Below, piece after piece: positions 38,701-41,700 of a stretch of 64,000 bases of DNA. Each line of letters starts with the position of its first letter. The first letter of the stretch is position 1. A program made the position numbers. The stretch is taken from the NCBI RefSeq assembly GCF_056746865.1, contig NZ_CM163382.1. The stretch is one strand, 5' to 3'.

Positions 38701-41700
38701 TACGCCGATTCAAAAAGTGCCACAGTCTATTTCTGTTGTGACCGCCGAAGAGATGGCGCTGCATCAGCCGAAGTCGGTAAAAGAAGCTCTTAGCTACACT
38801 CCTGGCGTTGCCGTGGGAACTCGTGGCGCATCCAACACTTACGATTACCTGATCATCCGCGGATTCGCCGCTGACGACCAAAGCCAGAACAACTATCTGA
38901 ATGGCCTGAAGATGCAGGGCAACTTCTATAACGATGCAGTTATCGATCCGTATATGCTGGAGCGCGCCGAAATCATGCGTGGTCCGGTATCCGTGCTGTA
39001 CGGGAAAAGCAGCCCTGGCGGCCTGTTGAACATGGTCAGCAAGCGCCCGACTACAGAACCGCTGAAAGAAATTCAGTTTAAAGCCGGTACTGACAGCCTG
39101 TTCCAGACTGGTTTTGATTTCAGTGATGCGCTGGATGATGACGGCGTTTACTCTTATCGTCTGACTGGTATTGCGCGTTCAGCCAATGCTCAGCAGAAGG
39201 GGGCAGAAGAGCAGCGTTATGCTATTGCTCCAGCGTTCACCTGGCGCCCGGATGATAAAACCAATTTCACTTTCCTTTCTTACTTCCAGAACGAACCGGA
39301 AACCGGTTATTACGGCTGGTTGCCGAAAGAGGGAACCGTTGAGCCGCTGCCGAACGGTAAGCGTCTGCCGACAGACTTTAATGAAGGGGCGAAGAACAAC
39401 ACCTATTCACGTAATGAGAAGATGGTGGGCTACAGCTTCGATCACGAATTTAACGACACCTTTACTGTGCGTCAGAACCTGCGCTTTGCGCAAAATAAAG
39501 TCTCGCAAAAGAGCGTATATGGCTACGGCATGTGCTCGGATCCGCTGTATACCAAAGACGACGATGCACTCAAGGCGAGTCCATGTTTAAGTATCCCGCA
39601 GTCAGAATGGAATCATACACTGACTCGTCAGTACGTTATCGATAATGAGAAATTAGAAAACTTCTCTGTTGATACTCAGTTGCAAAGTAAATTCGCAACC
39701 GGCTCGGTTGAACACACTCTGCTGACCGGCGTTGACTTTATGCGTATGCGTAATGATATTGACTCCTGGTTCGGTTACGCCGGTTCCGTTGCACCGTCTG
39801 ATATCTATAATTTAGACCGTAGTGACTTTGATTTTGGTGCTCACCCGGATCCGTCGGGCCCATACCGCGTTTTGCTTAAACAGAAACAAACCGGTCTGTA
39901 TGTTCAGGATCAGGCGCAGTGGGATAAGGTGCTGGTGACTCTGGGTGGTCGCTATGACTGGGCGGAACAGTCATCTTTCAACCGTGATTACGGTAATAAA
40001 TCCGATCGTGATGACAAACAGTTCACCTGGCGTGGTGGCGTAAACTACCTGTTCGACAACGGGGTAACGCCTTACTTCAGCTACAGTGAGTCGTTTGAGC
40101 CAGCATCTTTGACAGATGCAAACGGTGATCTGTTTGCACCTTCGAAAGGCAAACAGTATGAAGTTGGTGTGAAATATGTGCCGGAAGATCGCCCAATTGT
40201 GCTGACGGGCGCACTGTATCAGCTTACCAAAACCAACAACCTGATGGCGGATCCGAATAATCCCAATTTCTCGATTGAAGGCGGTGAGATTCGCGCTCGT
40301 GGTGTAGAACTGGAAGCAAAAGCGGCGCTGTCGGCGAGTGTTAACGTGGTTGGTTCTTATACCTATACCGATGCGGAATACACTACCGATACTACCTACA
40401 AAGGCAATACGCCTGCACAGGTGCCAAAACACATGGCTTCGCTGTGGGCTGACTATACCTTCTTTGACGGTCCGCTTTCAGGTCTGACGCTGGGCACCGG
40501 TGGTCGTTATACTGGCTCCAGCTATGGTGATCCGGCTAACTCCTTTAAAGTGGGAAGTTATACGGTCGTGGATGCGTTAGTGCGTTATGATCTGGCACGA
40601 GTCGGCATGGCTGGCTCCAACGTGGCGCTGCATGTCAACAACCTGTTCGATCGTGAATACGTCGCCAGCTGCTTTAACACCTATGGCTGCTTCTGGGGCG
40701 CAGAACGTCAGGTCGTTGCAACCGCAACCTTCCGTTTCTAATTTCTCTTTTGGGGCACGGATTTCCGTGCCCGTTTCACAAGTTGGCTGTTATGCAGGAA
40801 TACACGAATCATTCCGATACCACTTTTGCACTGCGTAATATCTCCTTTCGTGTGCCCGGGCGCACGCTTTTGCATCCGCTGTCGTTAACCTTTCCTGCCG
40901 GGAAAGTGACCGGTCTGATTGGTCACAACGGTTCTGGTAAATCCACTCTGCTCAAAATGCTTGGTCGTCACCAGCCACCGTCGGAAGGGGAGATTCTTCT
41001 TGATGCCCAACCGCTGGAAAGCTGGAGCAGCAAAGCGTTTGCCCGCAAAGTGGCTTATTTGCCGCAGCAGCTTCCTCCGGCAGAAGGGATGACGGTGCGT
41101 GAACTGGTGGCGATTGGTCGTTACCCGTGGCATGGCGCACTAGGGCGCTTTGGTGCGGCAGATCGCGAAAAGGTCGAGGAAGCTATCTCGCTGGTTGGCT
41201 TAAAACCGCTGGCGCATCGGCTGGTCGATAGTCTCTCTGGCGGCGAACGTCAGCGGGCGTGGATCGCCATGCTGGTGGCGCAGGATAGCCGTTGTCTGTT
41301 GCTCGACGAACCGACCTCGGCGCTGGATATCGCCCACCAGGTTGACGTGCTGGCGCTGGTGCATCGTTTAAGTCAGGAACGTGGTCTGACGGTCATTGCC
41401 GTGCTGCACGATATTAATATGGCGGCGCGCTACTGTGATTATCTGGTCGCCCTGCGCGGCGGTGAAATGATTGCTCAGGGAACGCCTGCGGAAATTATGC
41501 GCGGCGAAACCCTCGAAATGATTTATGGCATCCCGATGGGTATTCTGCCGCATCCGGCGGGTGCTGCACCTGTGAGTTTTGTTTATTGATGAGCGGCTTA
41601 CCTCTTATTTCGCGCCGTCGACTGTTAACGGCGATGGCGCTTTCTCCGTTGTTATGGCAGATGAATACTGCCCACGCGGCGGCTATTGATCCCAATCGTA

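Follow-up and report, generated by a model that had tools for sequence, protein, structure and literature searches.

A mosaic fhuA allele of Escherichia coli with a strongly divergent central block spanning loops L4 to L8

Introduction

FhuA is a ferrichrome transporter of the outer membrane and a receptor for phages and colicin, and work on the agents that target it (phages, colicin M, microcin J25 and conjugates of the albomycin type) has dealt almost entirely with the outer face of the K-12 protein (cluster E1). Most hydrogen bonds of T5 pb5 with FhuA involve EL4, EL5 and EL8 (PMC9586334), and L8 is needed by T5, phi80 and SO1-like phages while L4 is needed by T1 (PMC10373560). On the FhuA side, the interface with pb5 comprises 64 residues, and point mutations in it are tolerated, as are most deletions of single loops; strains with identical interface residues can be T5-resistant, and sensitivity is not set by FhuA identity alone (10.1101/2022.09.22.509047). 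Ferrichrome is bound by R81, G99, Y116, Y244 and Y315, G99 being one of the three ferrichrome-binding residues in the plug (PMC11658791).

FhuA is also known to vary. Wang et al. 2018 describe clusters E1-E4 and their mosaic evolution: cluster E2 has an L4 insertion (Indel 3) when compared with E1/S1, E3 has changes in L6/L7 and E4 in L3/L10, with Indel 5 lying in L6 and Indel 6 in L7. FhuA variable regions, including type HVR3_1_0, have been catalogued (PMC12175518). The allele classes of fhuA, their location in loops and their recombinational origin are already published, and the allele described here is one ordinary instance of them. We compared this allele with K-12 fhuA and with homologues from Escherichia and other genera.

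Results

The fhuA gene and its operon

The window, that is, the whole stretch of 64,000 nucleotides analyzed (contig NZ_CM163382.1, assembly GCF_056746865.1), contains a 752-aa open reading frame (ORF) that aligned end to end with the K-12 FhuA structures 8A60, 8A8C, 1BY3 and 2FCP in phmmer (E = 0), query residues 34-752 corresponding to chain residues 1-714 in 1BY3 and 8A8C. The protein scored 1447.9 bits against the NCBIfam equivalog NF007465 (FhuA; cut-off 803), with profile positions 1-726 of 726 covered. The gene is annotated as fhuA (WP_000124395.1) in strain 118UI and in five further carriers, whose copies are 1 nt off that of the window. ORFs and co-linear annotated loci agree that fhuA is the first gene of fhuACDB and lies 3' of mrcB, in the order hrpB-mrcB-fhuACDB-hemL.

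35729-38263, plus strand: mrcB, 5' flank of fhuA; 97-100% identical to K-12, normal E. coli divergence
38483-40741, plus strand: fhuA coding sequence, 752 codons and stop; predicted ferrichrome outer-membrane transporter and phage/colicin receptor
40792-41589, plus strand: fhuC (ORF list and co-linear 118UI locus annotation)
41589-42479, plus strand: fhuD (ORF list and co-linear 118UI locus annotation)
42476-44458, plus strand: fhuB (ORF list and co-linear 118UI locus annotation)

Much of the protein is conserved. The window and K-12 proteins are identical in 662 of 753 aligned amino-acid columns, including loops L3, L10 and L11 (100%) and the C-terminal 142 residues. A plug and a 22-strand barrel are predicted from the 88% sequence identity to the solved K-12 structures. 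An AlphaFold2 model based on a 37-sequence alignment had low confidence (mean pLDDT 26.6, pTM 0.19) because the alignment was too shallow, and no use was made of it.

38483-38581, plus strand: signal peptide, aa 1-33; 33/33 identical to K-12, the mature 1BY3 chain beginning at query residue 34
38582-39061, plus strand: plug (cork) domain, aa 34-193; 155/160 identical to K-12
38600-38614, plus strand: TonB box DTITV, aa 40-44; conserved with respect to K-12

Both disulfides, Cys318-Cys329 and Cys692-Cys698, are kept with all four cysteines, as are R81, Q100, F115, Y116, Y244, W246, Y313, Y315 and F391. The gene is intact and, as judged from its sequence, presumably functional.

Divergence from K-12 is concentrated in a central block

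Change-point segmentation of the alignment between the window and K-12 fhuA gave 98.5% DNA identity up to 38782, 98.6% at 39273-39482 and 98.0% from 40323 onward, separated by two divergent segments.

38783-39272, plus strand: moderately divergent 5' segment, end of the plug and first barrel strands; 88.2% identical to K-12
39483-40322, plus strand: strongly divergent central block, aa 336-610, beta-7 to beta-16 with L4-L8; 23-79% nucleotide identity to K-12 in the change-point analysis

Overall, the central block shares 71.6% of its nucleotides and 70.5% of its amino acids with K-12. At a 2% background, a stretch of 840 nt should hold approximately 17 mismatches, and the observed identity is far beyond chance. 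The segment at 38783-39272 is a separate mosaic piece. A slightly wider 5' interval, codons 68-270 (38684-39292), shared approximately 90-92% identity with each of the other Escherichia alleles tested, with a dS of 0.47 and a dN of 0.019.

Within the central block, amino-acid differences are concentrated in five loops, and the strands between them are 80-100% identical to K-12 at the amino-acid level. The boundaries of L4, L5 and L8 follow Table S1 of Lewis et al. 2023, and the exact residue ranges of L6 and L7 were inferred from strand alternation.

39533-39616, plus strand: loop L4, aa 351-378 (K-12 mature 318-339); 6/22 identical to K-12 (27%)
39779-39853, plus strand: loop L5, aa 433-457 (K-12 mature 394-419); 10/25 identical (40%), 1 residue shorter than in K-12
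39965-40006, plus strand: loop L6, aa 495-508 (K-12 mature about 457-470); 5/14 identical (36%)
40103-40144, plus strand: loop L7, aa 541-554 (K-12 mature about 503-516); 6/14 identical (43%)
40250-40270, plus strand: loop L8, aa 590-596 (K-12 mature 552-558); 3/7 identical (43%)

L4 has 6 extra residues between the conserved cysteines, Cys318 and Cys329 of K-12 being C351 and C368 here, and L8 reads PNNPNFS instead of PEGSFFS in K-12.

The first-pass annotation, made from sequence alone, had stated that the plug and barrel core match FhuA and that several stretches within 39500-40290, three of them quoted, differ from K-12 where extracellular loops lie. The former statement is supported. All three quoted peptides are present and differ from K-12: aa 366-395 (39578-39667) are identical at 13/30 positions, aa 427-467 (39761-39883) at 22/42 and aa 494-512 (39962-40018) at 10/19, and identity of these segments to K-12 could be rejected since the K-12 alignment confirms the differences. 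The interval named falls within the divergent block, and mapping onto K-12 places the variation in L4, L5, L6, L7 and L8.

The central block is old and saturated at synonymous sites

Against K-12, the central block has a dS of 1.42-1.71, which is saturated, and a dN/dS of 0.09-0.16, versus a dS of 0.04-0.15 at the gene ends. Even the strand codons within the block have a dS of 1.14, compared with 0.23 for the rest of the gene; this value is close to the dS of 1.1-1.5 between K-12 and Salmonella. Thus, the placement of the variation in loops holds for the amino-acid differences but not at synonymous sites, where the strands of the block are saturated as well. In terms of DNA identity over the block, the window is less similar to K-12 (71.6%) than to Citrobacter (76-77.5%), and less than K-12 is to Salmonella (79.1%).

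Among closer alleles, pairwise Nei-Gojobori dN/dS was 0.15-0.47 at L4-L8 and 0.02 outside the loops. The pairwise ratio at L4-L8 codons never exceeded 1, the criterion for diversifying selection, and a loop dN/dS approximately ten-fold above that of the strands is compatible with both relaxed constraint and diversifying selection.

The same type of block is found in other taxa. It is 80-84% identical at the amino-acid level in Citrobacter, Kosakonia, Lelliottia and Enterobacter vonholyi, compared with 70.5% in K-12 and 69% in Salmonella arizonae. The scan drew on one genome per species across 100,044 species, and the best DNA identity outside Escherichia was only 77.5%, in Citrobacter youngae. 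Neighbor-joining (NJ) trees of aa 34-335 and 611-752 recovered Escherichia as monophyletic, so that the gene ends follow the species phylogeny; in the incongruent tree of aa 336-610, Escherichia splits into two deep clades, and Citrobacter, Enterobacter, Lelliottia and Leclercia are split likewise.

The closest relative of the block is in FhuA of Escherichia sp. E1V33 (L011), also 752 aa long, which is 96.7% identical at the amino-acid level and 92.4% at the nucleotide level. E1V33 belongs to another Escherichia species; in 200-nt bins, its flanks share 84-100% (mostly 88-97%) identity with those of the window. Because its block is as diverged from the window (92.4%) as the rest of its sequence (92-95%), the two share an old allele class rather than a recent transfer. 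The K-12 type of block is 93.4% identical between K-12 and E. whittamii, and within each block type the divergence between Escherichia species equals that of the flanks. Taken together, the saturated dS, the low dN/dS and the occurrence of the block in other taxa indicate an ancient recombined allele class and not a recent burst of loop substitutions.

Segments of the gene are re-assorted within E. coli

The allele (WP_000124395.1) occurs in about 180 of 5,426 complete E. coli genomes; of the 5,424 that gave a match, 180 reach at least 99% identity, one of them being from a strain named ST69. Approximately 3% of complete E. coli genomes carry the window-type face and approximately 20% a related non-K-12 face. 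When queried separately, the 5' segment (38683-39290) was at least 99% identical in 230 genomes and the central block in 181. Many carriers, which come from several hosts and continents, encode an identical protein.

Strains with near-identical flanks can carry other alleles. RIVM_C039227 matches the window at 98-100% in its flanks, yet encodes an allele of 729 aa whose breakpoints lie close to gene nt 180 and 2200, and CB6837 combines near-identical flanks with a different fhuA allele. The shifts in identity inside fhuA are abrupt in comparison with the 98%-identical flanks, and fhuC, fhuD and fhuB (40792-44458) are 92-100% identical to K-12 in 200-nt bins and show no mosaicism; recombination at this locus appears to be confined to fhuA. 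With incongruent segment trees and segments re-assorted among strains, fhuA is a mosaic outer-membrane protein gene.

A private substitution at a ligand-binding residue

One change sets the window copy apart from other carriers of the allele.

38877, plus strand: private G-to-A, codon 132 GGC to GAC, G99D (mature numbering), in the plug; comparison with other carriers

Position 38877, which lies outside the interval 39500-40290 considered by the first-pass annotation, is G in all six other carriers. Glycine occupies residue 99 in 35/36 aligned homologues and Asp in none, and among the five ferrichrome-binding residues only G99 is altered in the window FhuA. Among 5,426 complete E. coli genomes, none held an exact match to a 59-mer with the variant, the exact window FhuA protein was absent from a collection of 15 billion proteins, and metagenome contigs gave 0 matches to the G99D variant and 2 to the wild-type version. 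G99D is the one unusual detail of an otherwise ordinary allele, and it offers a small lead as to whether natural strains evade FhuA-targeting agents via the ligand pocket rather than the loops.

Discussion

As a whole, the data are very probably explained by an intact, E2-type mosaic fhuA that represents an old allele class spread by intragenic recombination. The first ~300 nt of the gene (~180-230 nt against other alleles) and the last ~420 nt are ordinary E. coli sequence, nt ~300-790 derive from one diverged lineage, and nt ~1000-1840, encoding L4-L8 and the intervening strands, derive from an allele lineage that predates the separation of Escherichia, Salmonella and Citrobacter. These blocks are shuffled by homologous recombination, both inside Escherichia lineages and between them, and E. 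coli thereby displays a number of alternative outer faces on a single conserved transporter scaffold. The several classes may persist because phages, colicin M or microcins docking on L4, L5 and L8 favor rare receptor faces, and the allele may alter sensitivity to K-12-adapted T1, T5, phi80 or colicin M with ferrichrome uptake retained. A literature search for phenotypes of non-K-12 FhuA alleles yielded nothing decisive.

Phage-driven diversifying selection was the first-pass explanation of the loop variation: phage pressure would have driven rapid point substitutions in the loops of a K-12-like allele within E. coli. The concentration of amino-acid differences in L4-L8, a loop dN/dS 7-20 times the strand value, and the clustered replacements by which the L4 and L8 tips of the window, CFT073 and SaT040 differ are what such selection would leave, and the genome scans of Chen 2006 and Petersen 2007, as cited by later work, placed fhuA among positively selected genes. 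However, the block is saturated at synonymous sites (1.4-1.7) and its strand codons are as diverged as those between K-12 and Salmonella, dN/dS is 0.09-0.16 across the block and no higher than 0.47 in loops, and the same block type occurs in E1V33 and, at 80-84% amino-acid identity, in several other genera; Wang et al. 2018 moreover blame unrecognised recombination for the earlier positive-selection calls. As the main cause, in-situ selection is already contradicted and very improbable. What stands of the first-pass idea is not accelerated substitution but phage or colicin pressure as a plausible force maintaining several classes.

The block could instead have been imported recently into the ancestor of the window lineage from another genus, e.g. 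Citrobacter, as is suggested by the nesting of the window clade among Citrobacter, Lelliottia and Kosakonia, and not with K-12, in the central-block tree, and by the frequent post-speciation exchange argued for by Wang et al. 2018. The best non-Escherichia DNA identity, however, was only 77.5%, with one genome for each of 100,044 species covered by the scan, and on this ground recent intergeneric import was rejected; the equal divergence of block, rest of gene and flanks in E1V33 fits long residence in the genus; this scenario is improbable. Decay of a fhuA whose ferrichrome uptake is dispensable in this lineage is more doubtful still and barely credible: inactivated relatives do exist (a frameshift in fhuA or fhuB in an O15:H18 ST69 strain and SC476, and ISVsa5 in fhuB of CE0007a) and G99D affects a ligand-binding residue, but the 752-codon reading frame is intact, neither the TonB box nor the two disulfides nor the aromatic pocket for the ligand has been lost, and the protein is unchanged across its widespread carriers. 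Pseudogenisation was rejected on the intact ORF and the dN/dS of 0.02 outside the loops. Under the preferred reading of an old, recombined allele class, long-term balanced polymorphism and repeated old intergeneric introgression would both be compatible with the 37 sequences used, which do not distinguish between them.

A broader proposal, which we regard as tentative and rather unlikely when all its parts are taken jointly, is that the two or three outer-face classes are a balanced polymorphism which predates the enterobacterial genera and is maintained as phages and colicins kill in a frequency-dependent manner, and that G99D arose de novo in the window strain as an escape mutation favored by an agent docking on the plug. 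Candidate agents at the plug apices would be albomycin, microcin J25 or a T5-like receptor-binding protein. If this were true, each class would be a separate FhuA receptor type outside K-12-based phage work, and G99D would represent natural escape at a receptor site, added to a set of loops that is not of the K-12 type. The allele carries little weight in itself, since the classes are published and it is common in sequenced E. coli; it is relevant to phage therapy and to the design of siderophore-antibiotics.

With regard to described systems, the window FhuA shares its locus, its operon and all ferrichrome pocket residues except G99 with K-12 FhuA (1BY3, 2FCP, 8A60; cluster E1), but differs from it in L4-L8 (27-43% identical), in the lengths of L4 (+6 residues) and L5 (-1) and in the change of G99 to Asp. 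The 6-residue L4 insertion, K-12-like L3 and L10, and L6/L7 free of insertions are features of E2, and from these features we infer that the allele belongs to cluster E2. FhuA of CFT073 (WP_000035479.1; HVR3_1_0 in PMC12175518 and probably E2) resembles it in length (752 aa), L4 insertion, L5 type and central block (94.5% amino-acid identity). In contrast, DNA identity between the two is 92.9% over the gene, with a dS of 0.3-0.55 throughout, and they differ in L4 (DD..E..N instead of QE..Q..G) and at the L8 tip (NNPNFSI instead of NGSLFSV, NNPNFS being that of the window). The L4 variable region of the window is 3 residues off the catalogued type and counts as a new type by the rule of PMC12175518. 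Mosaic outer-membrane genes, e.g. fhuA and lamB along with ompA, ompC and ompF, combine a conserved scaffold with a limited set of alternative loop cassettes, which are swapped through intragenic recombination and lie at the sites bound by phages, and the fhuA of the window is no different in kind.

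Divergence of fhuA from K-12 in the central loop block

The fhuA gene and its neighbours were placed as follows from the ORF list:

38483-40741, + strand: fhuA, 752 codons
Upstream of fhuA: mrcB
Downstream of fhuA: fhuC, fhuD and fhuB
Opposite strand: hemL

The encoded protein aligned over its whole mature length with the solved K-12 FhuA structures 8A60, 8A8C, 1BY3 and 2FCP (E = 0) and scored 1447.9 bits against the NCBIfam FhuA equivalog (cut-off, 803 bits). E. coli 118UI and many other complete genomes carry it under the annotation fhuA (WP_000124395.1). The genes flanking fhuA are 96-100% identical between the window and K-12, and change-point segmentation against K-12 divided fhuA itself into five segments.

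DNA identity of fhuA segments to K-12 (change-point segmentation)
Up to 38782: 98.5%
38783-39272: 88.2%; separate 5' mosaic piece, plug end and first barrel strands
39273-39482: 98.6%
39483-40322: 23-79%; central block, aa 336-610, loops L4 to L8
From 40323 onward: 98.0%

The first-pass annotation had reported divergent surface loops at 39500-40290, which falls inside this central block. This is confirmed: the three peptides it quoted are present and differ from K-12 at aa 366-395 (13 of 30 identical), 427-467 (22 of 42) and 494-512 (10 of 19). Loop boundaries for L4, L5 and L8 were taken from Lewis et al. 2023 (Table S1, after Endriss and Braun); those for L6 and L7 were inferred from strand alternation, and Wang et al. 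2018 (bioRxiv 10.1101/320069) place Indels 5 and 6 in these two loops.

Amino acid identity to K-12 FhuA
L4: 27%, with 6 extra residues between conserved Cys318 and Cys329
L5: 40%
L6: 36% (loop range inferred)
L7: 43% (loop range inferred)
L8: 43%
Strands and turns separating L4 to L8: 80-100%
L3, L10 and L11: 100%
Last 142 residues: 100%

The TonB box is also the same as in K-12, and R81, Q100, F115, Y116, Y244, W246, Y313, Y315 and F391 are all kept. Low identity in L4-L8 (27-43% versus 80-100% between loops) and the unchanged L3, L10, L11 and C-terminal end indicate that, as judged by alignment, the differences do fall in outward-facing loops.

Age and distribution of the block types

Nei-Gojobori rates between the window and K-12 were dS 1.71, dN 0.28 and dN/dS 0.16 for codons 336-468 and dS 1.42, dN 0.13 and dN/dS 0.09 for codons 469-610, with dS 0.04-0.15 and dN 0 at the gene ends. 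The non-loop codons of the block gave a dS of 1.14, which is 5 times that of the rest of the gene and similar in size to that between K-12 and Salmonella (1.1-1.5). Among closer alleles with unsaturated dS, loop-codon dN/dS was raised (0.15-0.47 versus 0.02 elsewhere), yet in no case above 1. By these rates, the central block is old sequence with no recent acceleration. The earlier interpretation is partly supported: its loop location holds, but the process it proposed, phage-driven diversifying selection, does not, since the divergence stems from old allele classes that recombine and not from recent substitution (block dS 1.42-1.71, dN/dS 0.09-0.16).

The block translation was searched against one genome per species in 100,044 species.

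Amino acid identity of the block to the window
Escherichia sp. E1V33: 96.7%
CFT073: 94.5%
SaT040: 90.9%
Many Citrobacter, Kosakonia, Lelliottia V86, Enterobacter vonholyi, Phytobacter, Silvania and Atlantibacter: 80-84%
K-12: 70.5%
Salmonella arizonae: 69%
729-aa class (RIVM_C039227, E. coli SCPM-O-B-8794, Superficieibacter, Pseudocitrobacter): about 55%

In neighbour-joining trees, Escherichia formed a single clade for aa 34-335 and aa 611-752 and two deep clades for aa 336-610, one holding K-12 and E. whittamii with Salmonella, some Enterobacter, Leclercia adecarboxylata and Citrobacter NCU1, and the other the window, E1V33, CFT073 and SaT040 with most Citrobacter, Lelliottia V86 and Kosakonia. 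The same split ran within each of Citrobacter, Enterobacter, Lelliottia and Leclercia. Block DNA identity between the window and K-12 (71.6%) was lower than that between the window and Citrobacter (76-77.5%) or K-12 and Salmonella (79.1%), and reached 92.4% (window and E1V33) and 93.4% (K-12 and E. whittamii) inside one type. Since between-species Escherichia divergence within each type equals that of the flanks, both types seem, on these comparisons, to be at least as old in Escherichia as the species of the genus. No recent donor outside Escherichia was found among the sampled species.

Recombination within fhuA

Recombination is confined to fhuA. RIVM_C039227 and CB6837 share flanks 98-100% identical to those of the window and carry different fhuA alleles, with sharp breakpoints near gene nt 180 and 2200 in RIVM_C039227, a clean case of whole-allele replacement on one genetic background. 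Its 729-aa fhuA (4001-6190 of that locus) has a loop block about 55% identical in amino acids to that of window 38483-40741; SC476 was also part of this comparison. Against all other Escherichia alleles tested, identity of the 5' piece is about 88-92% over 38783-39272 and about 90-92% over the query 38683-39290, with a dS of about 0.47, dN 0.019 and hardly any amino acid change; no source lineage was found for it. At 99% identity or more, 230 complete genomes matched the 5' piece (query 38683-39290) versus 181 for the central block, which shows that the two pieces re-assort independently.

Among 5,424 matched E. coli genomes, 180 carried the whole allele at 99% identity or more, 895 matched at 90-95% (CFT073/SaT040-like), 3,785 at 80-90% (K-12-like) and 563 at 60-80%. 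A strain named O15:H18 ST69 is among the carriers, as are isolates of human, dog, poultry, cattle, pig, gull and water origin from several continents. Of 5,523 fhuA-like matches in E. coli genomes, 3 were on plasmids rather than chromosomes. Relatives repeatedly show loss of function in the fhu operon: O15:H18 strain ST69 and SC476 have an annotated fhuA frameshift, and fhuB of CE0007a is broken by an ISVsa5 transposase; some of these disruptions could be assembly errors. In SaT040 (locus 1-3781), the place immediately upstream of fhuA, which hrpB-mrcB occupy in other strains, is taken by a cluster of fimbrial chaperone, usher and subunit genes; this could reflect rearrangement, deletion or misassembly.

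A private G99D substitution

Outside 39500-40290, a G to A change at 38877 converts codon 132 from GGC to GAC (G99D in mature numbering) and is the single nucleotide separating the window fhuA from all six other carriers compared. Of the 36 enterobacterial homologues aligned, 35 have glycine at this site and none has aspartate. Braun's review (2024, PMC11658791) names G99, R81 and Y116 as the three ferrichrome-binding residues of the plug, and Q100, the neighbour of G99, likewise binds ferrichrome (PMC11357680). None of the 5,426 complete E. coli genomes contained the exact 59-mer with the variant, and the exact protein was missing from a collection of 15 billion sequences; metagenome contigs gave 0 matches to the variant 34-mer versus 2 to the wild-type 34-mer, two positives carrying little power. 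Over 12.8 kb, only one further site separates the window from its nearest genomes, AGR6137 and EP91A, and this second private difference shows that the window source is a distinct isolate very near them. The site, 45162, is a synonymous GAG-to-GAA change in codon 204 of hemL (minus strand). G99D may have arisen by adaptation or escape at the receptor pocket or by neutral drift, or it may be a sequencing error; it is a minor testable lead.

Receptor role and comparison with known FhuA classes

Most hydrogen bonds of the T5 protein pb5 go to EL4, EL5 and EL8 (PMC9586334), and L8 is needed by T5, phi80 and SO1-like phages and L4 by T1 (PMC10373560). The pb5 interface comprises 64 FhuA residues, T5 binding survives point mutations and single-loop deletions except that of L8, and T5 resistance is seen in some strains with identical interface residues (Degroux et al., 10.1101/2022.09.22.509047). 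With L4, L5 and L8 replaced, altered susceptibility of the window allele is therefore plausible, yet not readable from its sequence.

The mosaic fhuA pattern is already known and has been described in full, making the feature an ordinary one. Wang et al. 2018 (bioRxiv 10.1101/320069) found the FhuA tree to be at odds with those of the species and of FhuB, and sorted E. coli FhuA into four clusters, E1 to E4, that group with clusters from Salmonella. They located indels in the loop tips of L3, L4, L5, L6, L7 and L10, and suggested evasion of phages, toxins and antibiotics. Chen et al. 2022 and a 2025 AEM paper extended this to a general "mosaic evolution" and compiled a catalogue of FhuA variable-region types. 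An L4 insertion marks E2, and the window allele was assigned to this cluster by its features. The catalogued L4 type HVR3_1_0, the CFT073 form, is PLYTKDQEALKASPCLSIPQSQW, whereas the window form is PLYTKDDDALKASPCLSIPQSEW, differing at 3 residues.
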